A stretch of DNA of 64,000 nt, from positions 1 to 64,000 of the IMG/VR virus record IMGVR_UViG_3300004807_000018; one strand, 5' to 3'. Shown here piece by piece: positions 1 through 33,473 of the stretch. The translations under genes were made by a program, and so were the position numbers. Position 1 is the first letter of the stretch; every line of letters begins with the position of its first letter. A model generated the notes under the pieces. It had not been told where the DNA came from, ran no database searches, and was given only the letters and a program-made list of their open reading frames with translations. This DNA is from a virus.

Positions 1-333
1 CGTTCCTTATCTCCACTTCCCACTGGTGTGCTGTCGCTGCGGCACCTTGTGGCCCGAATGGGCTCCGATGGTGCCAGATGAAGAGTGGCAAAGAGTTGTG
101 CCTAGGTTGTATTGGCGCGGACTTTTGTGCGCCGATTGCTGGGCACACATATCGCAGCTCGTCGATACCGCCGAGAGGCGTTCTGAACATGAACGGGCAA
201 AACTTGAGATAAAGTAGATCTGTCACCGGTCCATCTTGGACCCTTGTTCCCTGCTAAACACCGGGCGCTGGCACCATGCCACGCGCCCGTTTTACTTTGC
301 GGCATAGGTCCAAAATGTTGCCTACAAATTGTC

Positions 334-368
334 CATATGCTTATTAATGATGCTATAATAAGCATATG
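334..368 (+). promoter_or_regulatory. Extended -10 promoter (TGcTATAAT, 351-359) inside a perfect 13-bp inverted repeat (putative operator); likely leaderless transcript
   Basis: CATATGCTTATTA (334-346) and TAATAAGCATATG (356-368) are exact reverse complements; ATG at 366 lies 6 nt after TATAAT; no SD sequence. Confidence 0.7.
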
Positions 369-788
369 AGCATCGACGATCTAGGGGATCTTGCAATCAT
401 CGTCAAAGGGCGCGTATGGGGAATCGACCTCGGCACCCCTCGAATCTATTTCCAGTCAGCCAAGCACCGGAAAGTCTTCATCGCGTTTGGCGAGTACGAC
501 GGAGAAACGCTTGGCTCACCCTCACTGAACGCGTTCATTGAGCCATGCGGGCAGGCTCCCAAATGGTACGAATCGCAGAAGGCGATCGAGATTCGCAATC
601 ACCAACAAGAACTCTGCGCAGTGCTCGCCGCATGCAAATCGACGACTCCAATTGAAAGCGCTGAGGCGCTGATGGACCTCGATTTCTTTGAAGTGAAGCC
701 AAAGACCATCCAGTCCGCCATCGCGCAGATCGAGTCAGGAAACATCGAAGAAGCCATATCGACGCTTGGAGCGCAGGCGGCAGCCTAG
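366..788 (+). CDS. Hypothetical protein (140 aa), first gene of the accessory operon
   Basis: ORF starts directly after the promoter; plausible protein composition. Confidence 0.75.
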   Translation: MSIDDLGDLAIIVKGRVWGIDLGTPRIYFQSAKHRKVFIAFGEYDGETLGSPSLNAFIEPCGQAPKWYESQKAIEIRNHQQELCAVLAACKSTTPIESAEALMDLDFFEVKPKTIQSAIAQIESGNIEEAISTLGAQAAA

Positions 789-885
789 AACAAGATTGCC
801 CAGGCGAGGCGGCAACCTCCCTGGGCTGAGCCAACGGAACAGACCCAATGACTACTACAATTATCCTCACAAACGGCGGTGCACG

Positions 886-2181
886 ATGAAATACACATGC
901 ACCCACGCCTGCGGGCACACGGGCACCATTCGGCTTTCCGGGCCGACGAAAAGCAGGAAATCGCTTCAGTCCTGGTACGAGTCCAAGGACTGCGAGGAAT
1001 GCCGCAAACAGAAAAGAGAACAGGTGCGCGAGCAGCTTCTAGCCGAAGCTCAGCAGTACGCGTCACTCTGCGGGTTCCCGGCGCTTTCGGGCTCAGAGAG
1101 GCAAATTGCTTGGGCCGAAACCATACGCTATGAGTTTTGCTGCGTGGATTACAGGCTCCAGCAGACCCAGGGCCAGCGCATAGACATCCCCGATCTTGCT
1201 TACGACCGCCTATTCAGATCGCCAATGGGGGCTTTGCGCCAAGGGCTGCTTCATCAACTGAAAAAGGTTCGTTGTTTGCCCGAAGAGGAGGTCGAGGCGA
1301 TCTACGTTCAGACCGTGGACGTCGACAACGAGGTTCTTTCGCAATCGCTACTGAACCGAACCGAGGCTAAGTGGTGGATCGACAACCGCGACAATCTCAC
1401 CTATCTCGCAGGTGAGGCGGCAATGGATACTCTGCAGATCGCCTACACCGCCATCCAGGAAGGGCGAGATTGGCGCGAAGCAATCCTGGAAAAGTCTGAC
1501 GAAGTCGCGCAGGCCCGAGAACTCGCTGAGGAAGCCGCTGAAACCCTGATCGCCGAAGGGGAAAGCGTGACTAAGGGCGCAACTCCGGTTGAGATCGTGT
1601 TGAGCGAAACTCACCGGATGGTGTACGTCCAATACCCACGCAAAGACGATGACCTATACCCCATTGTCAAGGGTCAAGGAACGTACGGGCCGAACGGATG
1701 GGCGATTCCGGCGAACCCGTTCCAAACGCTCGATGACATCGTTGCAGAATTTGCAACCAGGCTAATCGGCGCTGGATTCAGAGTTCTTCTGCCCTCACAA
1801 AAGACCCTCGCGATGGTAAAGGACGCGTCCTTTACGTGGCATCCAAATCGCTGGTGCATCCTGAAAGATGGATTGTTCATTGTTCAGTGGCGCGGAACGC
1901 ACGACGCGCTATACAACGGGCTGAAGCGCTGCGGGGGACGGTGGGAGTCCGGGTGCATGCGCGTACCGGTCAAAGCCTGGGAAATCGTTGAGGGACTCTG
2001 CGACGCTCACAAAGTCACCCTTTCGAAAAATGCGAGCGAGTACATCGAGGCTCAGAAGGCAAAGTATTCCGGCGCATACCTTGTGGATCCCGCACAAGCC
2101 CCGCAAGAGCCAGCACCCAACTCTTTTGACCCTGCATCAGCAGCGCCGGATCCTGCTCTGAGGGACGACGATGAAGATTAG
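886..2181 (+). CDS. Conserved-type phage protein with N-terminal CxHxCGH...CxxC motif and two C-terminal HARP-like repeats; SNF2-associated
   Basis: In-frame ATG at 886 (MKYTCTHACGH), LSGSERQIAWAETIR motif, acidic tail; upstream of the SNF2 gene. Confidence 0.75.
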   Translation: MKYTCTHACGHTGTIRLSGPTKSRKSLQSWYESKDCEECRKQKREQVREQLLAEAQQYASLCGFPALSGSERQIAWAETIRYEFCCVDYRLQQTQGQRIDIPDLAYDRLFRSPMGALRQGLLHQLKKVRCLPEEEVEAIYVQTVDVDNEVLSQSLLNRTEAKWWIDNRDNLTYLAGEAAMDTLQIAYTAIQEGRDWREAILEKSDEVAQARELAEEAAETLIAEGESVTKGATPVEIVLSETHRMVYVQYPRKDDDLYPIVKGQGTYGPNGWAIPANPFQTLDDIVAEFATRLIGAGFRVLLPSQKTLAMVKDASFTWHPNRWCILKDGLFIVQWRGTHDALYNGLKRCGGRWESGCMRVPVKAWEIVEGLCDAHKVTLSKNASEYIEAQKAKYSGAYLVDPAQAPQEPAPNSFDPASAAPDPALRDDDED

Positions 2182-2638
2182 CGAGGTGCCAAGCGCTGGG
2201 GTTGCCTGCGCTTACCGAAACCTCCGTTTAGCTCTGAGCGAGCTAAACGGAGGTTCAATCGACTCGTTTCGCCTGACGCGAGACGGCAGACTGTCCTGCA
2301 TGTGCGAGGTTGCACTCACGAGAGCGCAGCTCATCATCGTGCTGGGGCGCAGCTCCATTGGCATCTCCAGGACCGCCGAAATTCTTAGGCATCTGCCGTC
2401 AGGAGTGATTTGCGTAAGGCTGTGGAGTCTGTCGCAGACGTTTCGGTTCTTCTCAACGTGCCAGCGTGGCTTGTCGAGCTACCTAGGGCAGCGCCGTACC
2501 TTGCAGGTGCCGGACACCATTCACTGCGGAATCGGCTGCAGATTGCCACTCAGACCCCTGACGACAGCGAAGCCCAGGCGCTTGAACCCTGACCGTGTGC
2601 ACCATTCGGAGGCCCTCCTAGATGATCCTGAGGACTGA
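2171..2638 (+). CDS. Hypothetical protein (155 aa)
   Basis: Fills the gap and overlaps both neighbours; composition is atypical. Confidence 0.4.
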   Translation: MKISEVPSAGVACAYRNLRLALSELNGGSIDSFRLTRDGRLSCMCEVALTRAQLIIVLGRSSIGISRTAEILRHLPSGVICVRLWSLSQTFRFFSTCQRGLSSYLGQRRTLQVPDTIHCGIGCRLPLRPLTTAKPRRLNPDRVHHSEALLDDPED

Positions 2639-4091
2639 GCCAATGAAACAGCAGCTCGCGGCAGTGCAGAAGCTGAAGCCGTTCAAGGTGGGCGCTTTGT
2701 TCATGGACATGGGCACAGGGAAATCGCTTGCGGCGATCATGCTCGCGCTCTCAAGGCGAAAGGTGAGGCGCGTTGTGTGGTTTTGCCCCATCACACTCAA
2801 ACCCACCATCGAAGTGGAGATCGAAAAGCACGTCGAAGACGCATCCGTGTACGTCTTCGATGACTCAACGTCGTCGACCCACATTCCGAATGCCTATTGG
2901 TACGTGGTTGGCATCGAGTCGATGAGCAGTAGCGACCGTGTCCGGCTCGCAGTGAAGAAACTGATCGATCCGCACACCATGGTGATCCTAGACGAGTCGG
3001 GCTACTGCGCCAACCACAAAGCTGAGCGCACGCGGTGGATTACGGGACTCTCAAGGCCAGCACTGTACCGCCTGATGCTCACAGGCACACCCATTCAAAA
3101 GGGCATACAGGATCTGTTCAGCCAAATGTTCTTTCTCGACGAAAGGATCCTCGGCTACAAAAGCTTCTACTCGTTTGCGGCGAACCATCTGGAATACCAC
3201 GAGCGCAAACGTGGGCTTGTGGTTAGGGCTCACAACGTGCCGTGGATCTCTGCGAAGATCGCCCCGTACGTGTACCAGGTCACCAAAGCCGAATGCCTTG
3301 ATCTGCCAGAGAAGCTCTTTGAACACCACTGGGTCCGCATGACTTGGGAACAAGAAGAGCTTTACAGCCGGGCAAAAGAAACTCTCTTCGCCGAACTCAT
3401 GGAATGCGACGACTCGGACAAAGAAAGCGTGCTCGTCTACCGGCTCTTCAACGCGTGTCGACAGGCAGCTTGTGGGTTCTGGAACGAATATCCGCGCCTG
3501 AGCGGGCGAAAGGGCGACGTAACCCCTACCGTGCACGAGGCGGAGCATCGGCGGCTCGAAACTCTCGAGTCAGTCCTGAGGCAGATTCCCGAGGACGAGA
3601 AGGTCATCATCTGGGCTGAATGGCTGCGCGACGTCGATGACATCAAAGCCATGATCGCCAGAGTGTACGGAGAAGACCAGGCTAGCGAACTGACCGGCAG
3701 GTACAAAGGCAAAGCTCGCGAGCGTGAGGTTAGCCTCTTCCGTGGCCACAGGCGGTTTCTCGTCGGACTTGCCAGCACAGGCGGCCACGGCTACACATTC
3801 ACTGAGGCTTCTTACGCTGGGTTCTACTCCCTGGGTCTTCAGTACCCACTGTACGTCCAGGCTCAGGACCGAATCCACCGCATCAGCCAGACAAAGCCGT
3901 GCACCTATTTCACGATCAACATGCAAGGCACGATCGACGGCACGCTTATGGACCTCATGTCTCGTAAGCAGAGCATCGCTGAGTACCTGCGAGAAAACAT
4001 AGAATCAATCAAGGACAAGACAACCAGGGTTTCCGCACTTCGGAGACTGATGGGGCAAATCAAGGCAGACGAACAAAAAATAGCATCATGA
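2622..4091 (+). CDS. SNF2-like SF2 helicase/ATPase
   Basis: Walker A MDMGTGKS, Walker B ILDESG, motif III LTGTP, motif VI QAQDRIHRISQ. Confidence 0.92.
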   Translation: MILRTEPMKQQLAAVQKLKPFKVGALFMDMGTGKSLAAIMLALSRRKVRRVVWFCPITLKPTIEVEIEKHVEDASVYVFDDSTSSTHIPNAYWYVVGIESMSSSDRVRLAVKKLIDPHTMVILDESGYCANHKAERTRWITGLSRPALYRLMLTGTPIQKGIQDLFSQMFFLDERILGYKSFYSFAANHLEYHERKRGLVVRAHNVPWISAKIAPYVYQVTKAECLDLPEKLFEHHWVRMTWEQEELYSRAKETLFAELMECDDSDKESVLVYRLFNACRQAACGFWNEYPRLSGRKGDVTPTVHEAEHRRLETLESVLRQIPEDEKVIIWAEWLRDVDDIKAMIARVYGEDQASELTGRYKGKAREREVSLFRGHRRFLVGLASTGGHGYTFTEASYAGFYSLGLQYPLYVQAQDRIHRISQTKPCTYFTINMQGTIDGTLMDLMSRKQSIAEYLRENIESIKDKTTRVSALRRLMGQIKADEQKIAS

Positions 4092-4477
4092 GCACATTTG
4101 AACTAAGGATCATCGAGCACGGAGAGCCGGAGCTGTGGCCAATCTTGGGGCCTCTCATGGCGAGTGAGGAAGTAGCCAAAAAGCGTGGCGGCTACCCCAT
4201 GTTCAGCAAGCCCGGCCAGACGTGGATTTTCGCGATCCGTGACGGCACGGTAGTCGGGTTCAACTCGGTTCTGAACGGCAGGCCAGCCAGGATGCTCTAC
4301 GCCTTTGCCTGGGGAGACTCTGAGGTCTACGAAGCTGTAGTCCGCGCTGCTGACTCGATGGCTTCCCCGCTCCAATCAACGGTGCTCAAAACAAACCTGC
4401 CGGTTCTTCTGGGCCTCGGATTCAAGAAGGTCGGCGACAAGGGAGCTCGGTACGCGATCGTCGTAAAGGGTGGCTGA
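4088..4477 (+). CDS. Putative GNAT-fold acetyltransferase-like protein
   Basis: 129 aa; WIFAIRDGTVVGF strand and C-terminal LLGLGFKKVG resemble GNAT motifs. Confidence 0.55.
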   Translation: MSTFELRIIEHGEPELWPILGPLMASEEVAKKRGGYPMFSKPGQTWIFAIRDGTVVGFNSVLNGRPARMLYAFAWGDSEVYEAVVRAADSMASPLQSTVLKTNLPVLLGLGFKKVGDKGARYAIVVKGG

Positions 4478-5793
4478 TGGGCAAAAAGATTTACCTCGAG
4501 GTCGATACGTACACGGCGGTGCAGCGGAGGCTACAGTTCATCTTTGAGCACTTCGACAACGTGTATGTGTCGTTCTCTGGTGGAAAAGACTCCGGGCTGC
4601 TCTTAAACCTCGTGCTCTCGTACATGAGGGCGAACGGCATCACGAAGAAGATCGGCGTGTTCCATCAAGATTTTGAGGCGCAGTACACCGAGACAACACG
4701 CTACGTCGAGCGCGTGATGACTTCGAATCTCGATCTCATTGAACCGTTTTGGGAGTGCCTCCCCAAGAGTTCGAAGACGGCCACGTCGATGTACGAGCAG
4801 TACTGGATTCCGTGGGATCCAGCCAAACAAGACATCTGGGTGCGTCCCATGCCCGAGTTCTACGGGGTGATCAACGTCGACAACAACCCGTTCGACTTCT
4901 TCACCTTTGGCATGATGCAGGAGGACGTCTATCGGGAGTTCGGCCCCTGGTATCACAGGGTAGTTTGCGGATCCAAAGGGCGCACGATCGGGCTCATCGG
5001 AATCCGTTCAGATGAGTCACTGAACCGGTGGAGAGCTGCTTCGACGGAGCGCGAATCTTCATACCTTGGCGCGAACTGGACATCAGGGATCTCCGAGAAC
5101 GTGTGGTGCGGCTACCCACTGTACGACTGGCCAGTTGAGGACATCTGGACAGCCAACGCCAAATTCGGCTACGACTACAACAAACTCTACGACCTCATGC
5201 ATGCCGCAGGGCTGAGCGTTCACGAGATGCGCGTTGCCTCTCCTTTCCACGACTGGGCAATCAGCACCTTGAAGCTGTACCGCGTCCTGGAGCCCAACAT
5301 CTGGGCGCGAATGGTGGGCAGAGTCAACGGAGCGAACTTCACGGCCATCTATGGCGGTACAGATGCTGTCGCGTGGAAGAACATCAAGCTTCCACCGGGC
5401 CACACGTGGAAGACCTACGCCGAGTTTCTTTTGTCGACACTGCCGGAGGACACGCGAAACACTTACCTATCGAAGATCGAGGCCAGCAAGAAGTCTTGGA
5501 AGGTAGGTGGAGCTCGAAGTCCTGAACTAATCGAGCAACTGATTGCCGAGGGAGCGCCTGTCATCCGCACGGGAGAAACCAACAACCGCGGTAAAGGCGC
5601 ACACGAGGTGATCCGGTTTGATGACTACCTGGATGACACGGGCGTCGACGATTTTCGACTTGTTCCGACATGGAAGCGCCTTGTGATTTGCATCCTCAAA
5701 AACGACCATCTTTGCAAATACATGGGCTTCGCTCAGACCAAGAGGGAGGTTGAGCGGAAGAAAGCGATCATGGAGAAGTACGCGAATCTATGA
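4477..5793 (+). CDS. ibrA: PAPS-reductase-family/DUF3440 protein (IbrA/YbdN-like)
   Basis: PP-loop VSFSGGKDSG, GIRSDESLNRW, YPLYDW, MRVASPF, C-terminal PTWKRLVICILKNDHLCKYMGF. Confidence 0.9.
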   Translation: MGKKIYLEVDTYTAVQRRLQFIFEHFDNVYVSFSGGKDSGLLLNLVLSYMRANGITKKIGVFHQDFEAQYTETTRYVERVMTSNLDLIEPFWECLPKSSKTATSMYEQYWIPWDPAKQDIWVRPMPEFYGVINVDNNPFDFFTFGMMQEDVYREFGPWYHRVVCGSKGRTIGLIGIRSDESLNRWRAASTERESSYLGANWTSGISENVWCGYPLYDWPVEDIWTANAKFGYDYNKLYDLMHAAGLSVHEMRVASPFHDWAISTLKLYRVLEPNIWARMVGRVNGANFTAIYGGTDAVAWKNIKLPPGHTWKTYAEFLLSTLPEDTRNTYLSKIEASKKSWKVGGARSPELIEQLIAEGAPVIRTGETNNRGKGAHEVIRFDDYLDDTGVDDFRLVPTWKRLVICILKNDHLCKYMGFAQTKREVERKKAIMEKYANL

Positions 5794-6047
5794 ACACGAA
5801 CTATGCCAGCGCGTCGGAAGTTATCCGCAACCTCGCGCAGATACGAGCGCCGTACGAGGTCATTCACACCGAAGGCAGATTTAGAGTGGTTCGGTTCTCG
5901 GAGCCGTTCTTCGATGGCTCGGAGTTCTGGGTGGTAAACGACAAGGGTTTCCTCTGGGAGCCCTGCTCCACCGCCCAGGGCGCGATGGATTACCTCTTGA
6001 GTGACGAGGCGCGGGAATACAACCAGGGTGGCCATGCCTCAGATTGA
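5790..6047 (+). CDS. Hypothetical protein (85 aa)
   Basis: ATGA-coupled to ibrA, overlaps the next gene. Confidence 0.7.
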   Translation: MNTNYASASEVIRNLAQIRAPYEVIHTEGRFRVVRFSEPFFDGSEFWVVNDKGFLWEPCSTAQGAMDYLLSDEAREYNQGGHASD

Positions 6048-6396
6048 GACCGTAAAGCTTGAGGAAGCGCAGGCGTTCATTCGGGCTAATCGGCGGGCGT
6101 TTCCTCATGTCGCAGTGCCGACTGCGGGTCAGTTCTACGGAGTGCGCGAAGAGGACATGCTTGTCTCGATCCTTGGAGTCGCTGCCCTCAAATCGTCGAC
6201 GCGCATCAAGGCCATGGCCACACTTCCGGCTCACCGGCGCCGGGGGCTTTCGAGCGCACTTTTGGCTCACGCGATGGCAGGCGGAACGAGATTCTCAGCG
6301 TTCTCCACACAAGACTCGAGGGGGCTCTTCGAGCGTGCAGGATTTACGGCCGTCATCGAGAACAAGCACGGCATCGCCTTTATGACGAAGAACTAA
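6034..6396 (+). CDS. GNAT family N-acetyltransferase
   Basis: Acetyl-CoA motif A TLPAHRRRGLSSALL and motif B SRGLFERAGF; ATG at 6034. Confidence 0.85.
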   Translation: MPQIETVKLEEAQAFIRANRRAFPHVAVPTAGQFYGVREEDMLVSILGVAALKSSTRIKAMATLPAHRRRGLSSALLAHAMAGGTRFSAFSTQDSRGLFERAGFTAVIENKHGIAFMTKN

Positions 6397-6397
6397 C

Positions 6398-6964
6398 ATG
6401 CAACAGAACTTATTCAACTCGAACTTTGTGAGCCCTGTATACGCGGTTCAAGCCGTGCCAGTGGAGAAGCTTCGGGCGAACGCGTACAACCCTAACTCTG
6501 TCGCGCCTCCGGAGATGAAGCTCCTCGAACTCTCGATCTGGGAGGACGGGTTCACGATGCCCATCGTTTGCTACAAGCTCCCCGAAGAGGATGCCTACGA
6601 GATCGTGGACGGGTACCACAGGTACACGGTGCTCAAGACAAGTAAGCGCATCTACGAGCGTGAGAATGGCATGGCCCCGATCGTGGTGATAGACAAGCCT
6701 ATCAGTGAGAGAATGGGCTCCACGATCCGGCACAACAGGGCAAGAGGATCGCACTCGATTGAGCTCATGCAGAAGATCGTGGCAGAACTCGTGGAGTCCG
6801 GCATGGGCGACGCGTGGATCATGAGGCACATCGGGATGGATGCAGACGAACTGCTTCGCTTGAAGCAAATCACAGGCCTTGCCGCACTGTTTGCTGATCG
6901 GGACTTTGCAAGCGCCTGGGTTCCAAACATGGAAGAGGCGGACTTTTACGAAGGAAACAAATGA
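6398..6964 (+). CDS. ibrB: ParB/Srx-domain protein (IbrB/YbdM-like)
   Basis: ANAYNPNSVAPPEMKLL, GFTMPIV, IVDGYHRY, STIRHNRARGSH motifs. Confidence 0.9.
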   Translation: MQQNLFNSNFVSPVYAVQAVPVEKLRANAYNPNSVAPPEMKLLELSIWEDGFTMPIVCYKLPEEDAYEIVDGYHRYTVLKTSKRIYERENGMAPIVVIDKPISERMGSTIRHNRARGSHSIELMQKIVAELVESGMGDAWIMRHIGMDADELLRLKQITGLAALFADRDFASAWVPNMEEADFYEGNK

Positions 6965-7383
6965 GCGCAATAAGCACCAGCAATAACGGACCGAGGATCG
7001 TCAGCAGCACCTACTGGGGTAGCGACTATGACAAGAAAGGCGCGGTCTATCTCAGCGTGAATGCAGGTACATGGAGGCTCATGCTTCCGACAGCGTTTGA
7101 TTCGCTGACCGAACTGCTCGCGGCTGAAGGCGTGGCCATCACTCGCGGCATATGGCGCGAACGTGGAGTGCTGGACGCCGTCGAGATCCTGTTCGATGAT
7201 GGATCCGAAAGCCCGTTCGCGTTTCACATCGGCACATCGCAGGTGGACAGACTCCCACCAGGCGATGACCGGACAGAGCGCAAGATCGTGCTTTATGGAC
7301 CTGGGCCAACCGAGCTTGGCGAACTGCCGTGCTTCTACCGGCGCGGCAAGATACCCTGTCTCAAAGAGTGGAAACTGCCATGA
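6961..7383 (+). CDS. Hypothetical protein (140 aa)
   Basis: Coupled ORF; YLSVNAGTWRLMLP...EILFDDGSESPF. Confidence 0.75.
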   Translation: MSAISTSNNGPRIVSSTYWGSDYDKKGAVYLSVNAGTWRLMLPTAFDSLTELLAAEGVAITRGIWRERGVLDAVEILFDDGSESPFAFHIGTSQVDRLPPGDDRTERKIVLYGPGPTELGELPCFYRRGKIPCLKEWKLP

Positions 7384-7559
7384 AAGAGCGCAAGCGAGCG
7401 CCAGGCGGGGGCCGTAAATTCCTCAGCGAGAATGAACCGACCGTGAGGCGAGTGTGCTCGATGCCAGCCTCCTACGCCGAGTTTCTTCGGACCATTCACC
7501 CATCGCAGAGCGAAGCCATCCGCATTCTCATCAAACGCGCGATGGCAGCGAAAGAATGA
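7380..7559 (+). CDS. Small ribbon-helix-helix (CopG-like) DNA-binding protein
   Basis: 59 aa, basic N-arm RAPGGGRK, beta-strand then helices ending SEAIRILI. Confidence 0.65.
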   Translation: MKERKRAPGGGRKFLSENEPTVRRVCSMPASYAEFLRTIHPSQSEAIRILIKRAMAAKE

Positions 7560-7605
7560 ACCTAAGGTTGTAACTCTCCACCGAAAATTAAAGACCCATA
7601 AACGC

Positions 7606-7658
7606 AAAAAGGCCCTCAGCTATCCGGAAATTCCGGATAGTTGAGGGCGCTTTGCTTT
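7606..7658. terminator. Bidirectional intrinsic terminator between convergent operons
   Basis: GCCCTCAGCTATCCGGAA-A-TTCCGGATAGTTGAGGGC hairpin (7612-7648), A-run on the left and T-rich tract on the right. Confidence 0.8.
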
Positions 7659-7661
7659 GAG

Positions 7662-7919
7662 TCATTCGCCGCGCTGGATCTTGTCAGCCACCCCGACGTA
7701 ACCCGCGATGTCAATCCAAGAATCCTTGTGGCCGGGCGTGTTGCAAAGCCTTGCCAGCTTGACCCCGACCATGCACATGGCCACCTTCTCGGGCGACACG
7801 TCAATCCCTAAGATCACCGACCAAATGGTCGCGATGCGCTGATGGTTCTCGGACGCCGAGCCGTAGTCTTTGGCCCTTGGCCCGTCAATGAGTTCGTTTG
7901 CTTGTTCCAGAAATGTCAT
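7662..7919 (-). CDS. DUF6378-like small phage protein
   Basis: GPRAKDYG...NHQRIATIWS...KLARL...HKDSWIDIAGY pattern. Confidence 0.8.
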   Translation of the reverse strand: MTFLEQANELIDGPRAKDYGSASENHQRIATIWSVILGIDVSPEKVAMCMVGVKLARLCNTPGHKDSWIDIAGYVGVADKIQRGE

Positions 7920-9331
7920 GCCGCTCCTTTCTTCAAAACTTTGACCCTCGCCTGGTTGAGGTTGAACATAAGCTGTGCAACCGGCCCCTCAGTCGGATGG
8001 AACACACGGGCGATTCCGCTGCGCCGGGATCCCACGTAAAGGTTGTTGTGGTGGTAGGCGTCGACTCCTGCGAGCGATGGCAGTTTGAGAACCTGCGTTC
8101 CCATCACGTCTTTGGCCGTGTAGTGATGCTTGTCGCCGGTCTGCGCTTCCCTGTAGATCGTCCTGCCCAACATTTCGGGCTGCTCGGTCGCCATCACTAA
8201 GGGCAGTTTCTCGACGTTGATCTTATTCCCGTGGACGTGGCAAAACATGTTCTTGTGCCACTCGAAGTACTGCCGGAGGTTAGGTGAATTGATGATTTCG
8301 ACCTCGTTTGCCTTGTGGTAGTGACACTCGATCGCCACGCCAGCGGTGAAGCAACTCAAGGTGTCGTGGTTGCCAGGCAGAAACATGACTGAGACAGGAG
8401 CCACGCTGAGCGCTCGGTCGATGGTCGCGATGAGAAGCTGGATCCCGCGCCGGTAGATCTTGTGGAACCGCCCGTCGTTGTCTTGCGGAGTGCCGGCCGT
8501 CGTCGTGCCAATAATGTTGTCTGAGTTGAAAAAATCGTGACCGATGATGAGATGCATGAGCGAGATCGGATAGACGTTGATCTTGCGCAGAAGGTCCTCG
8601 ACGGCCAGCATCCATATCTGCTCGGCTATCGCTAGATCGTAGTCGTTACCCACCTCTTCGGCCCAGCAGAGCTTGCCTAGGTGAATGTCAGTCAGGTTGA
8701 GGATCGCCAGGTGCCCTTCATCCTCAAAGGGTTCGCGCTGCAGATCGAAATAGACAGGCGCGTGGGCTTTGCACTCGTCAATCAGCCATTGGAAGTCTTC
8801 ACGGTCGCTGGCTGCCTGTTTGCGATAGACAAAGGTCGCCTCGATCTTCCATTGAGGCGTGATTTGAACGTCGTGTTGCGCGTTCTTGGACGCCTGTTCC
8901 CACTGGCCGCACTTCCAAGTCTTGACCTCCCAGACGGTAAGGTCTGCCTCGCAGTACTCAAGAAGCTCCTCAAGAGTTCGGATACGCTTGTTGACAACCG
9001 CCGAGAACTTCCACTCGTCTTCCGAGAATGTTTCGTTGCGCCACTCTTTGGGCTGATCGTCCTGCTCGCTGAGCGCCAACGATTCCGCTTCTTTGGCCAG
9101 TCGCTCGAACTCGGCCTCCTCTTCTAGGCTGAACGACCTTTTTAGGCTGTACAAGCATTGAAAGCCTTCGCGCCGGTCAATACGGTTTAGGTTCTGGGCA
9201 ATCGAATCGAGCGACCGACCAGGGAAAAGCGCGTGCAGCCGATCCGCAGCAGCCTTCTTTCCTTTAATGTTGGCGCACGGGCGCAAAAGGCGCAGTCGCC
9301 TTATCTCTGCTTCTGAATAGTTCGGACCCAT
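7916..9331 (-). CDS. Calcineurin-like metallophosphoesterase
   Basis: DIHLG, GHDFFN, GNHD, HVHG, GDKHH metal-binding motifs. Confidence 0.85.
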   Translation of the reverse strand: MGPNYSEAEIRRLRLLRPCANIKGKKAAADRLHALFPGRSLDSIAQNLNRIDRREGFQCLYSLKRSFSLEEEAEFERLAKEAESLALSEQDDQPKEWRNETFSEDEWKFSAVVNKRIRTLEELLEYCEADLTVWEVKTWKCGQWEQASKNAQHDVQITPQWKIEATFVYRKQAASDREDFQWLIDECKAHAPVYFDLQREPFEDEGHLAILNLTDIHLGKLCWAEEVGNDYDLAIAEQIWMLAVEDLLRKINVYPISLMHLIIGHDFFNSDNIIGTTTAGTPQDNDGRFHKIYRRGIQLLIATIDRALSVAPVSVMFLPGNHDTLSCFTAGVAIECHYHKANEVEIINSPNLRQYFEWHKNMFCHVHGNKINVEKLPLVMATEQPEMLGRTIYREAQTGDKHHYTAKDVMGTQVLKLPSLAGVDAYHHNNLYVGSRRSGIARVFHPTEGPVAQLMFNLNQARVKVLKKGAA

Positions 9332-32015: not shown

Positions 32016-33473
32016 TTAGCTCTGCTGTCCGATGTGGACGGCGCGGCTCTGAACGGTCTGTCCACCGCAGCGGAATCGGAAGTTCCAACCGAGGGCGTTC
32101 TTCTGGATCATCGAGCGGTCTTGAGTACCGTAGGTCTCGATGGTCATGCCAACGCGCTGGCAGAAGATGTACGCATCCTTCGGATCACCGAAAGCGACGA
32201 CATTGTTTCCTGCGCCGGTGTTGGGCATGAACGGCGAGAAGATCACGTCAAAGCCAAGAAGCTTGTGAACGCGCTTGCTTGCCAGACCCTCAGGACCCTG
32301 CGATCGAGCCAGACCAAAGATGAGCTGGCCAGAACCGTCAGTGATCTGCGAGAACGTCGCCCAGGCGTTGATCTTGTTCATCAGCGCCACAGTCGTGTCA
32401 GAATCGGTGTACTGCGGAGGCATGCCCTCAACAAGGTTGATAAGGCCTGCAGCCGTGACCGGGTTACCGCAGTTGACCACTGGGCAGTAGTCGCCCGCGC
32501 CGCCCGCGTTGGTCAGAAGTCCGACGGGCTGGTTGATGCCGGTACCCGACACCAGAGCGTTGTCGAGACCGAGATCGTAGGCCTGGCCACCGAGCTTGCC
32601 GATCACCATCGAAAGAGGAATCTGAGAGTCCTCCAGGAGGTTGCGCGAGCACTCGATGAAGAACTGGCCGGTGTGGATCTCAACCGTCACGTTGCCGAAG
32701 TTCGGGTCAGCCTGACTTGGCGTGGGGCCCTTTTCGCCAATCCACTGGATTCGCGGGCTGTTTGCCACGTAGATGTCGGCCGTATCCGAGTCGTTGTTGA
32801 TTCGGGGCCAGATCACCTGGTCAGCCGAGCACGGAACCGTCTCGACATAGCTCATGAGCCGTGTCGGGTGAGGCTTGCGCTGAATGAGCTGAGCAATGTA
32901 CTGCGGAGGAACGAAGAAGCCTCCGCCGCTGTCCGCGCCCTCAGAAAGGGTTTTCGCGTCCATCAGGACTTGGAAGTCGGCCTTGTCGAGCGCGTCTTGT
33001 CCCTTTCGAGCGTAGATCTCGAACGCCCGCATGTAGGTGGGCTCCTGGATTGCCTTCAGGGTTCGGTCGGAGAGAACCGCACCGTCGCCCTCGATCGGCA
33101 CCATCTTGCCCGTGATGGGATCGACGCCATAGGTCTCGTGACCGCTCTTGCCTTCCCATGTCGTGCGCTGGCCCATGGCCTTTTGAGCTGCATTCTGGAT
33201 GGCTGCAAGTTCTGCCTTAGCAACCGCACCGATCGGCATGAGATTCGCGTTGCCCATAAGTCCCTTTGCGGACTGCATGCTCTTCTCAAGCTCGATTGCG
33301 GACTGAAGGTTGGCCTCAGCCTCCTTGAGTCTTTGGGGATACTCCCTCAGAAGTTTCAACTCGTCGGGGGACCAATTGCCCTTGGCCTGAAGCGTCTCGC
33401 ACTCCGACACGATGCCCTCGAAGGCATCACGCTGCGCCTTGATCAGCGCATTCTCTTGATATGCTGTTGCCAC
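32016..33473 (-). CDS. Major capsid protein, HK97 family
   Basis: N-terminal coiled-coil delta domain, GGFFVPPQ, SRNLLEDS, GTGINQPVGLL, FGDPK.Y, RCGG motifs. Confidence 0.92.
   Translation of the reverse strand: MATAYQENALIKAQRDAFEGIVSECETLQAKGNWSPDELKLLREYPQRLKEAEANLQSAIELEKSMQSAKGLMGNANLMPIGAVAKAELAAIQNAAQKAMGQRTTWEGKSGHETYGVDPITGKMVPIEGDGAVLSDRTLKAIQEPTYMRAFEIYARKGQDALDKADFQVLMDAKTLSEGADSGGGFFVPPQYIAQLIQRKPHPTRLMSYVETVPCSADQVIWPRINNDSDTADIYVANSPRIQWIGEKGPTPSQADPNFGNVTVEIHTGQFFIECSRNLLEDSQIPLSMVIGKLGGQAYDLGLDNALVSGTGINQPVGLLTNAGGAGDYCPVVNCGNPVTAAGLINLVEGMPPQYTDSDTTVALMNKINAWATFSQITDGSGQLIFGLARSQGPEGLASKRVHKLLGFDVIFSPFMPNTGAGNNVVAFGDPKDAYIFCQRVGMTIETYGTQDRSMIQKNALGWNFRFRCGGQTVQSRAVHIGQQS

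Follow-up and report, generated by a model that had tools for sequence, protein, structure and literature searches.

Near the start of the window (the whole 64,000-nucleotide stretch of DNA analysed, from an uncultured temperate phage) lies a dense row of genes around an IbrA-IbrB pair, raising the question of what such an assembly does. The initial annotation had read it as a self-contained SNF2-GNAT-IbrA-GNAT-IbrB operon and as a candidate DNA-modification or anti-defence system. The layout of the locus, its proteins and its relatives point to an accessory, moron-like phage operon which most likely encodes an ATP-driven machine for the covalent modification of DNA.

Layout of the operon and its control elements

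ORF analysis confirmed a real operon of 10-11 coupled genes on the plus strand (366-7559), with the following features.

334-346 / 356-368, plus strand: operator-like inverted repeat, perfect, 13-nt arms, 9-nt spacer
366-788, plus strand: g1, 140 aa, orphan; GC3 0.65
886-2181, plus strand: g2, 431 aa, Cys/His-rich N-terminus; N-terminal match to phrog_16123
2171-2638, plus strand: g3, 155 aa, uncertain gene
2622-4091, plus strand: g4, compact SNF2-family ATPase, 489 aa; PF00176, PF00271, phrog_62
4088-4477, plus strand: g5, GNAT-fold protein by predicted fold, 129 aa
4477-5793, plus strand: g6, IbrA; PAPS_reduct and DUF3440
5790-6047, plus strand: g7, 85 aa, orphan; GC3 0.74
6034-6396, plus strand: g8, canonical GNAT acyltransferase; Pfam above cut-offs
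6398-6964, plus strand: g9, IbrB, mini-ParB/Srx protein; ParB_N, phrog_2159
6961-7383, plus strand: g10, 140 aa, orphan
7380-7559, plus strand: g11, possible RHH-type regulator by sequence pattern, 59 aa
7612-7648: hairpin terminator, 17-bp stem

Eight of the ten gene junctions overlap by 1-17 nt (ATGA at g10/g11), g8 and g9 are one base apart and the sole true gap is the 97 nt between g1 and g2, in agreement with the earlier description of the genes as mostly translationally coupled. The GC3 excess typical of confirmed genes is present in all 11 frames (0.65-0.74). As had also been stated, the operon lies on the strand opposite to the late genes, which are encoded on the minus strand (e.g. 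the capsid gene, 32016-33473) and run convergently to it.

The claim that the operon is self-contained stood in part. A strong terminator, whose 17-bp stem occupies 7612-7648 ahead of a T-run, was found as proposed, and it is common to the operon and to the convergent minus-strand late operon. At the other end, the perfect inverted repeat, which occurs only once within the window and appears operator-like in sequence, spans an extended -10 element and the g1 start codon (366). No two-hexamer promoter was found by promoter scan, and the extended -10 (TGcTATAAT, 351-359), recognised by eye, is the sole promoter-like element; were it the promoter, g1 would be leaderless, and g1 may thus be translated from a leaderless mRNA. 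Consequently, of the promoter and operator that had been claimed, the operator has a candidate while the promoter is unconfirmed. The terminal RHH regulator is likewise unconfirmed: g11 shows an RHH-like pattern, but Pfam, PHROG and PDB gave no match, and it is retained as a possible RHH-type regulator.

The proteins of the operon

IbrA (g6) matches DUF3440 (1.7e-73) and the N-terminal part of PAPS_reduct in Pfam. Its residues 1-270 display a PAPS-reductase/FAD-synthase/CysD fold (VIA Z 15.3, rmsd 3.0 and 175 aligned residues with 8ron; Z 14.0-14.2 with 1zun and 4bwv; Foldseek match to CysH, E 7e-7), and its DUF3440 half gave no recognised fold match. The PP-loop SGGKDS (residues 34-39), of the ATP-pyrophosphatase type, is intact and invariant across relatives, as is a C-terminal motif, KNDHLCKYMGF; the conserved cysteines are only three (C94, C405 and C413). 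Likeness to DndC/BrxP is weak, with 20.5 bits against the DndC model for a cut-off of 290.

IbrB (g9) matches phrog_2159 (3.6e-78) and, at 24.9 bits (2e-5), falls slightly below the Pfam cut-off of 26.3 for ParB_N. It carries DGYHR at residues 71-75, RHNRARG and an HTH-like segment, and it aligns with both Noc/ParB and the serine kinase SerK across the DG[YF]HR segment. Binding between IbrA and IbrB is supported by a predicted complex with an ipSAE of 0.74, the best of three controls giving 0.00. Among solved complexes 58 of 80 attain this mark, as do 2 of 110 mismatched pairs; because our own alignments were used, these counts apply only roughly. Agreement between runs covers 59% of contacts or more, with a partner pLDDT of at least 61, and the model places the conserved C-terminal tail of IbrB on IbrA.

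The SNF2 protein (g4) is well matched by Pfam (PF00176, 8e-17; PF00271) and by PHROG (phrog_62, 2.7e-89), with intact GTGKS, DESG, TGTP and QAQDRIHRISQ motifs. For g8, Acetyltransf_7, _10 and _1 all score above their Pfam cut-offs, the acyl-CoA loop RRRGLS is present and the start at 6034 is backed by alignment with relatives. g5, on the other hand, has no Pfam match, and its assignment comes from a confident AF2 model (pLDDT 90.5) whose top Foldseek matches are all GNATs (ElaA, TM 0.77, E 2e-6); it is without the usual acyl-CoA loop and may be non-catalytic. Thus, SNF2, IbrA, IbrB and one GNAT of the proposed domain set are recognised by databases, and the second GNAT by fold only.

The other genes were compared with 160 related loci (80 viral, all from phages, and 80 bacterial). 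g1 gave no family match in Pfam, PHROG, NCBIfam or PADLOC and no homologue in these loci, g7 likewise gave neither family match nor homologue there, and g10 had no usable match in Pfam or PHROG. g3 is the least certain gene because none of the 160 loci has a homologue of it and a perfect 16-bp hairpin (2219-2255) lies within it; the spacing between g2 and the SNF2 gene in related loci is only about 100 bp. The g2 ORF opens at 766 and its PHROG match begins at ATG 886. Its homologues immediately precede SNF2 in 11 other viral loci and in 3 bacterial loci (cluster c25), two of these three being also found by tblastn. Within the subclade of the window, g2 is a conserved partner encoded upstream of SNF2. 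In structure comparison, g2 residues 225-415 weakly resemble the N-terminal parts of phage SNF2 proteins.

Conservation and function of the module

At the core of the operon is the IbrA/IbrB pair, known (E. coli IbrAB, K-12 YbdN/YbdM) but uncharacterised. IbrB adjoins IbrA in all 160 loci, and the two form a single chain in P0161 and five others. The SNF2 gene is immediately upstream of IbrA in 63 of the 80 viral loci and just upstream in 14 of the 80 bacterial ones, with a single-chain SNF2-IbrA fusion in P0272. The g5-type GNAT, a family of 641 representative clusters, was found only beside ibrA, with IbrA-IbrB directly downstream in 17/17 loci examined; it occurs in 16 of 301 Bacteroidales genomes, all 16 being among the 20 with DUF3440, and in each directly upstream of IbrA-IbrB. 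This family is dedicated to ibrAB loci, though rare in phages. The g8-type GNAT is repeatedly fused to IbrB (L009, P0213, P0228, P0231 and P0234), and natural fusions of IbrB with an ectoine-synthase-type cupin and with DUF2000 also exist. The conservation of GNAT and SNF2 genes beside ibrAB, on which the initial annotation had staked its reading, is thus largely favourable, and because of it and of the fusions the enzymes are regarded as one functional unit, whose linkage would fit the covalent modification, in several steps, of a substrate associated with DNA. GNATs are nevertheless missing from 74 of the 80 phage versions, and the operon is not unique: it represents an elaborate form of a module that is very widespread.

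The preferred reading, given a probability of roughly 0.4, is that IbrB acts as a DNA-bound hub recruiting the adenylating enzyme, the motor and the group-transfer enzymes, and that DNA is modified, probably to the phage's benefit; from the gene order, domains, conserved neighbourhoods and fusions observed, it goes on to a substrate, a chemistry and a benefit that we infer. As a mini-ParB/Srx protein that combines an NTP pocket with an HTH-like segment, IbrB would sit on DNA and hold IbrA by its conserved C-terminal tail. The intact PP-loop of IbrA would adenylate the target group, the invariant C413 being a candidate for the nucleophile or carrier. Probably aided by g2, the SNF2 motor would make duplex DNA accessible or confer processivity along it. 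The activated intermediate would then receive an acyl or aminoacyl group, added or handed on by the two GNAT-fold proteins, which are accessory parts present in some lineages. Phage (or host) DNA would carry the resulting mark, most plausibly as a means of evading host restriction-type defences.

To our knowledge, no modification is on record for any IbrAB system, which speaks against this reading, and Sandt et al. reportedly described in 2002 the activation of prophage eib genes by IbrAB, the only phenotype on record. The operon is also without a sulfur-mobilising gene, methyltransferase or nuclease, which counts against DNA modification, as do the low score of IbrA against DndC, its DUF3440 half without a recognised fold match and a g5 that may be non-catalytic. 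Because IbrAB mostly stands alone among the 80 bacterial loci, in variable chromosomal contexts, and the E. coli K-12 pair of this type is a repressed chromosomal operon (PMC9068703), the module is unlike classic anti-restriction cargo. As precedents in favour of the preferred reading, a ParB-like protein and a DNA-modifying enzyme work as a pair in DndB/DndC and DpdB/DpdA (PMC12839542), a vibriophage PAPS-domain::Dam fusion gives escape from Dnd (bioRxiv 10.1101/2021.05.05.442762) and Aca-regulated anti-defence operons include PAPS-reductase genes (PMC13551039).

Alternatively, DNA could remain unmodified and the module could control transcription or counter silencing, with IbrB binding a site, spreading or clamping and altering phage or host expression while IbrA and SNF2 load or remodel it; this is judged unlikely. 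VirB and KorB are ParB-family regulators, IbrB has the ParB N-domain and the HTH-like segment, SNF2 proteins can remodel protein-DNA complexes and operator-like palindromes occur in the operon. A regulator, however, would need neither an invariant PP-loop adenylating enzyme nor recurrent fusions with GNAT, cupin and DUF2000 enzyme domains. In addition, the ParB CTP motif GERR is replaced in IbrB by DGYHR, the version of the enzymes SerK, SbnI and DndB, and no parS-like repeat recurs within the window.

A role in prophage or chromosomal defence or exclusion, by which the module would mark or attack foreign DNA or stop its replication and so shield the lysogen, is quite improbable. SNF2- or ParB-containing defence systems do exist (DISARM, Dpd and Zorya ZorD), and the best PADLOC matches of g4 are ZorD, DpdE and DrmD. 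The layout is moron-like, with its own candidate operator/promoter and terminator beside the end of the late region; in temperate Streptococcus phages the module occupies a typical cargo position after the lysis genes, and bacterial copies lie in variable contexts. Yet PADLOC system models recover IbrA and IbrB only by weak superfamily matches, a nuclease or other effector is missing from the module, and homing-endonuclease fusions to ibrB suggest a conserved phage gene rather than a host defence gene.

It is decidedly doubtful that the target is a protein or small molecule, whereby IbrA would adenylate a carboxylate or carbonyl on a defence protein, nucleotide signal or metabolite, a GNAT or cupin would finish the conjugation and IbrB would be merely an NTP-using partner, a Srx/SerK-like kinase. 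PP-loop enzymes such as the QueC-like Cap9 act on proteins this way, and Cap9 (9nto, Z 8.3) is among the fold neighbours of IbrA; DGYHR fits the kinase/sulfiredoxin branch (SerK, SbnI), and GNATs and ectoine-synthase-type cupins are typical small-molecule enzymes. The dedicated SNF2 translocase in most phage loci, the SNF2-IbrA fusion and the HTH-like segment of IbrB indicate DNA instead. Lastly, that IbrA is a true PAPS reductase boosting host sulfur assimilation, as IbrA-type genes are annotated in many virome papers and as its PAPS_reduct match, CysH-like fold and PHROG label ('phosphoadenosine phosphosulfate reductase, auxiliary metabolic gene') might suggest, is hardly credible given a Pfam match limited to residues 29-82, no matching CysH model in NCBIfam, a PP-loop of the ATP-pyrophosphatase type, DUF3440 in place of the CysH tail, and a ParB-like partner gene always (160/160) and a SNF2 gene usually alongside.

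Comparison with known systems

Under the preferred reading of DNA modification, several systems offer partial parallels. Phage Mu Mom is a GNAT-fold DNA adenine hypermodifier which decorates DNA against restriction (cited in PMC13551039). Mom works alone, whereas the GNATs of the phage operon are accessory to IbrAB, g5 lacks the acyl-CoA loop, and the likeness considered is one of fold. The vibriophage PAPS-domain::Dam protein of Piel et al. is likewise a phage-borne PAPS-reductase-fold domain, located in a variable anti-defence region with counter-defence shown experimentally (bioRxiv 10.1101/2021.05.05.442762), but it is fused to a methyltransferase, has no DUF3440, ParB or SNF2 partner and belongs to another branch of the fold.

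Dpd, the 7-deazaguanine DNA modification system, also combines a ParB-like protein with a SNF2 helicase, DpdB being a ParB-like ATPase that assists the DNA-modifying enzyme (PMC12839542), and g4 has DpdE among its best PADLOC matches. Unlike Dpd, the phage operon has no TGT (DpdA) or preQ0 pathway genes, and its enzyme is a PP-loop adenylating protein. Dnd/Ssp (DndB/DndC, SspD) and BrxP of BREX type 4 similarly join a DGxHR ParB/Srx-fold protein to a PP-loop PAPS-reductase-fold enzyme, which acts on DNA using ATP (PMC12839542, PMC10853773). Here, however, cysteine desulfurase, DndD/DndE and a restriction partner are missing, IbrA has DUF3440 in place of the Fe-S region of DndC and only three conserved cysteines, and the ATPase partner is a SNF2 motor rather than an SMC-like protein.

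The same core of a PAPS_reduct and DUF3440 protein beside a small ParB_N protein is found in E. coli IbrA/IbrB (ECOR-9 island) and in K-12 YbdN/YbdM, in which YbdN is the PAPS reductase/DUF3440 protein and YbdM is ParB-like (PMC9068703). Those pairs reside on the chromosome or on an island and are controlled by LysR/H-NS, with an effect on gene expression as the only one reported, whereas the phage operon adds to this core a dedicated SNF2 motor, g2, two GNAT-fold proteins and four orphan genes.

Organization of the operon and its surroundings

The region 366-7559 is occupied by eleven plus-strand ORFs (g1 to g11), and the translational coupling proposed for most of them in the initial annotation was borne out: overlaps of 1-17 nt occur at eight of the ten junctions, a single base lies at another and g1 and g2 alone are separated (97 nt), with a third-position GC excess, as in confirmed genes, in all eleven frames. 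Family identities were obtained from Pfam, PHROGs and NCBIfam for four genes, those of the SNF2 protein (g4), IbrA (g6), a GNAT (g8) and IbrB (g9). The record is linear, of 82,169 bp with a CheckV completeness of 88%, and the window covers its first 64 kb. The operon lies at its extreme left end, convergent with the late operon, whose virion genes run on the minus strand from about 7.7 kb on, in keeping with the opposite orientation first described. The remainder of the record (L164, counted from the end of the window) holds SbcC-like, RecT-like and PIF1-helicase genes together with a tyrosine integrase, which indicates a temperate phage. Megablast of positions 1-8000 against 50,697 phage records gave no match, and an Rfam search of 1-8200 gave nothing at E <= 0.1.

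Features of the operon and its surroundings (window positions unless stated)
334-346 / 356-368: operator-like perfect 13-nt inverted repeat, unique in the window, spanning the -10-like element and the g1 start codon
351-359 (+): TGcTATAAT, extended -10-like and the sole -10-like element, ending 6 nt ahead of the g1 ATG
2219-2255: perfect 16-bp inverted repeat (loop of 5 nt), unique in the window, within ORF g3, which is doubtful and lies between g2 and the gene for SNF2
7662-7919 (-): first gene of the convergent operon, a DUF6378 protein (1e-29) whose PHROGs label, 'phosphofructokinase', looks like an annotation artefact
7916-9331: SbcD-like 'DNA repair exonuclease', encoded second in the convergent operon
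32016-33473 (-): major head protein
L164:13747-15123: tyrosine integrase
L164:16901-17530 (-), record 80901-81530: 209-aa Sulfotransfer_3 protein (E 1.2e-7, 32.6 bits, cut-off 27), past the integrase

The terminator attributed to the operon was found downstream of its last gene, with a 17-bp stem. Its own promoter and operator were recovered in part, a candidate operator being the palindrome at 334-368, while no sigma-70 two-hexamer site was found in the promoter scan; if TGcTATAAT is the promoter, the operon mRNA would be leaderless. The RHH candidate g11 (59 aa) had no RHH match in Pfam, PHROGs or PDB sequences, its sequence pattern alone hinting at one strand followed by two helices. No relatives were found for g3, and the inverted repeat within it, which is followed by no T-run, might bind a protein or form a structure in RNA. 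The genes g1, g7 and g10 are orphans, g10 being without a usable Protein Atlas match, and g2 met hypothetical clusters only in the same resource. The Sulfotransfer_3 gene, of a family whose enzymes use PAPS, lies close to the opposite end of the record from the operon encoding IbrA with its PAPS-reductase fold, and may belong to phage cargo or to host DNA flanking it.

Family assignment of IbrA and IbrB

IbrA consists of an N-terminal PAPS_reduct part followed by DUF3440 (PF11922 1.7e-73, 246.7 bits, cut-off 25; PF01507 36 bits) and also matches phrog_2302 (6.8e-102). The SGGKDS motif read at the outset is present at residues 34-39, and such a PP-loop is the signature of ATP alpha-phosphate chemistry, that is, adenylation. 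Structure search of the model gave residues 1-270 a PAPS-reductase / FAD-synthase / CysD fold (Z 13-15), and Foldseek and VIA-wide searches with the whole model aligned residues 1 to about 300, of which 2-270 were spanned by at least a fifth of the rows; searches of PDB sequences, single or profile, returned PP-loop fragments only. Invariant across IbrA relatives are the PP-loop, H63/D65/E67/Q69/Y70, R177/E180/S181/R184, RVAxP (252-256), C94 and a C-terminal KNDHLCKYMGF containing C413, with C405 nearly so. A cluster site may be formed by C94, C405 and C413, or C413 may act as a carrier.

Two better-known identities were considered for IbrA. As DndC/SspD it scored 20.5 bits with TIGR03183 against a cut-off of 290.4, and the PADLOC DndC match (E 7e-5) had no stretch passing alone; neither a desulfurase nor a DndD/E-like gene was found in the operon with Pfam and NCBIfam. 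As CysH, with which fold searches show the N-terminal domain to be common, the PF01507 match is limited to residues 29-82, the C-terminal half is DUF3440 and no CysH model is among the NCBIfam hits. With model scores far short of the cut-offs and no partner genes, the module is not a member of Dnd, Ssp or CysH. The reading of IbrA as an auxiliary gene of sulfur metabolism is rejected.

IbrB (188 aa) is a ParB_N protein by phrog_2159 (3.6e-78), its Pfam ParB_N score of 24.9 bits being just below the cut-off of 26.3 and the NCBIfam ParB scores far below theirs. The expected DGYHR motif lies at residues 71-75; the conserved motifs of the family are DG[YF]HR and an invariant RHNRARG, accompanied by an HTH-like segment. 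Across the DG[YF]HR segment, alignments of IbrB were obtained with Noc/ParB and also with two kinases, SerK and SbnI. A canonical ParB CTPase clamp of the Spo0J/Noc/KorB kind was rejected on the alignment to Noc (7ol9), in which DGYHR stands in place of GERR, and on the short length of the protein, whose C-terminal tail is modelled on IbrA.

Partners of IbrA and IbrB in related loci

Relatives of IbrA (46-62% identity) were compared in 80 viral loci, kept from 126 confirmed phage-contig hits, and 80 bacterial loci. IbrB adjoins IbrA in all 160; it is the most conserved protein of these loci (59-78% identity in viral loci, given as 62-78% in the family test, and 51-77% in bacterial ones), and in all 80 viral loci the adjoining protein is of the IbrB type. 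Well over a hundred phage contigs carry IbrA/IbrB-type pairs, as do many gut Firmicutes, Bacteroidales and Alphaproteobacteria. The pair is also present in control genomes, where DUF3440 was detected in E. coli, B. thetaiotaomicron and L. lactis. Of cultured phages, Streptococcus phage Bsingle has helicase, 'PAPS reductase' and 'ParB-like' genes following the lysin, and IbrA-IbrB occupies this site in S. thermophilus phage CHPC1230.

The g4 product is a compact SNF2 ATPase (PF00176 61.6 bits, PF00271 33 bits, both over cut-offs) with both lobes and intact Walker A/B and motif VI elements (GTGKS, DESG, TGTP, QAQDRIHRISQ). Such a gene lies immediately upstream of ibrA in 63 of the 80 viral loci, usually preceded by an unnamed protein of about 107 aa (c3, 37 viral loci; e.g. 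L066:6166-6489), or, in the window's subclade, by a homologue of g2 (in 11 further viral loci and three bacterial ones, Xenorhabdus japonica included). A split SMARCAL1/HARP-like annealing helicase made of g2 and g4 was rejected, as its support went no further than phage SNF2 proteins whose N-terminal parts weakly resemble the g2 C-terminus in structure. In a second architecture (15 viral loci) SNF2 is replaced upstream of ibrA by another unnamed protein of about 140 aa (c5; e.g. L032:7407-7832) with a conserved NRKAW..GxAxC segment; neither c3 nor c5 has a Pfam match. Downstream of ibrB an HTH_3 regulator is frequent (19 loci). Bacterial loci of the sample, mostly Lachnospiraceae, carry ibrAB as a stand-alone pair in variable contexts, and a bare three-gene SNF2-IbrA-IbrB cassette was seen in uncultured gut Alphaproteobacteria MAGs (L085, L087-L090, L092, L094).

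The g8 product is a canonical acyl-CoA GNAT (Acetyltransf_7 31.3, cut-off 27; Acetyltransf_10 28.8, cut-off 23.6; Acetyltransf_1 23.5, cut-off 20.7), and its acyl-CoA loop RRRGLS aligns with RNQGIG and RGRGYG of relatives. For g5, the first GNAT of the initial annotation, the fold was upheld. An AF2 model from an alignment of eight relatives reached pLDDT 90.5 and pTM 0.84, and the best 50 Foldseek matches listed against the PDB were all GNATs (ElaA, TM 0.77); no Pfam GNAT hit or family match was obtained, and in a family alignment of 40 the Q/RxxGxG/A acyl-CoA loop was not found, W46 being the sole invariant residue. The assignment rests on the fold search; hhalign of the g5 family with the g8 family gave a probability of 9%.

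Seen from the IbrA side GNATs are scarce, the g8 type occurring in two viral loci and the g5 type in four viral and three bacterial ones. With 641 representative clusters at E <= 1e-3 the g5 family itself is large, and its neighbourhoods were examined in a sample of 301 genomes, all Bacteroidales. The g5 type was present in 16 of these, all within the 20 carrying DUF3440, and in all 17 g5-type loci examined IbrA and then IbrB lie directly downstream of the GNAT gene. By this arrangement and the co-occurrence with DUF3440, the g5-type GNAT is in some lineages an accessory subunit dedicated to IbrAB. Conservation of the GNAT and SNF2 genes beside ibrAB, which had been named as a check on the original proposal, is thus largely upheld, for SNF2 in viruses and for g5-type genes viewed from their own side; in bacteria SNF2 is present in 14 of 80 loci.

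Further associations were found by searching longer relatives of IbrB and of IbrA and then checking their domains (P-numbers are clusters from these searches).

Fusions involving IbrB or IbrA
IbrA + IbrB: single chains, P0161 and five others
g8-type GNAT + IbrB: GNAT N-terminal in locus L009, C-terminal in P0213
GNAT + IbrB, both domains in one chain: P0228, P0231, P0234
Ectoine-synthase-type cupin + IbrB (PF06339, 5.6e-44 in P0216): about a dozen clusters (P0215, P0216, P0219, P0221-P0225, P0232, P0239)
IbrB + DUF2000: one cluster, P0229
SNF2 + IbrA: one chain, P0272, 903 aa
HNH/NUMOD homing endonuclease + IbrB: many chains of about 332 aa among P0173-P0230

Judged by these domain combinations, the cupin and DUF2000 are, like the GNATs, interchangeable enzyme partners of IbrB. 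In P0175 an N-terminal NUMOD4 / HNH_3 / I-HmuI-like homing endonuclease sits on an IbrB relative, and chains of this kind suggest that ibrB may be a favoured homing target in phages. Against a best control of 0.00, the IbrA-IbrB complex model scored 0.74 (ipSAE). Of 80 solved complexes 58 attained that mark, as did 2 of 110 mismatched pairs, counts that are only rough as own alignments were used. Contact agreement between runs was at least 59% and partner pLDDT at least 61. The modelled contact places the conserved IbrB C-terminal tail (155-184) on the N-terminal helix and residues 217-248 of IbrA. Together, the fusions and the complex model point to IbrB as the hub of a multi-enzyme assembly.

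Possible function and comparison with known systems

A covalent DNA modification benefiting the phage is the favoured reading, with a probability of about 0.4. It would combine a DNA motor and a ParB-fold DNA/NTP protein with an adenylating enzyme and group-transfer enzymes that are interchangeable. A fuller scheme, in which IbrA-IbrB-SNF2 installs a DNA modification not known before via an adenylated intermediate, the two GNAT-fold partners extend it here to an acylated or aminoacylated mark and cupin, DUF2000 or glycosyltransferase partners act elsewhere, is put forward tentatively and is rather unlikely as a whole. The foremost alternative, a ParB-type role in transcription or anti-silencing, would agree with the sole known phenotype of IbrAB, which reportedly activates prophage eib genes. 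The literature search found no paper giving a mechanism for IbrAB, Sandt et al. 2002 being outside what it covered. The operon might also serve in defence of the lysogen; PADLOC gave no system-level match for it, with SNF2 superfamily hits and faint DndC/BrxP hits only. The last alternative is the same kind of chemistry directed at a protein or small-molecule target.

IbrA/IbrB pairs are very common, yet their chemistry is not known, and they are routinely mislabelled as auxiliary genes of sulfur metabolism or as partition proteins. The module is widespread and already known but unexplained, and the window adds an unusually complete version, among the most complete in combining the motor with GNATs of both types and a regulator-like gene. 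To our knowledge three lines of supporting evidence are new here: the GNAT family dedicated to IbrAB, the fusions as a set and the model of the IbrB tail on IbrA. The dedicated GNATs, the fusions (IbrB with IbrA, GNAT, cupin or DUF2000; IbrA with SNF2) and the modelled contact provide a testable model with named residues. Should the product be a new DNA mark, a class would be added to phage counter-defence and an orphan operon of E. coli K-12, whose copies are YbdN/YbdM under YbdO repression (PMC9068703), would gain a function. If the fuller scheme is true, IbrAB would represent a class of DNA hypermodification systems that is new, modular and very widespread, K-12 YbdNM included.

The anatomy of the operon is parallel to that of Dnd (DndB/DndC) and of Dpd (DpdB/DpdA with the SNF2 protein DpdE) (PMC12839542). 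Phages also offer precedents, since a PAPS-domain::Dam fusion defeats Dnd (preprint 10.1101/2021.05.05.442762) and Aca-controlled anti-defence operons include PAPS-reductase genes (PMC13551039). Consequently, in view of these parallels and precedents, covalent DNA modification is preferred over the other readings.
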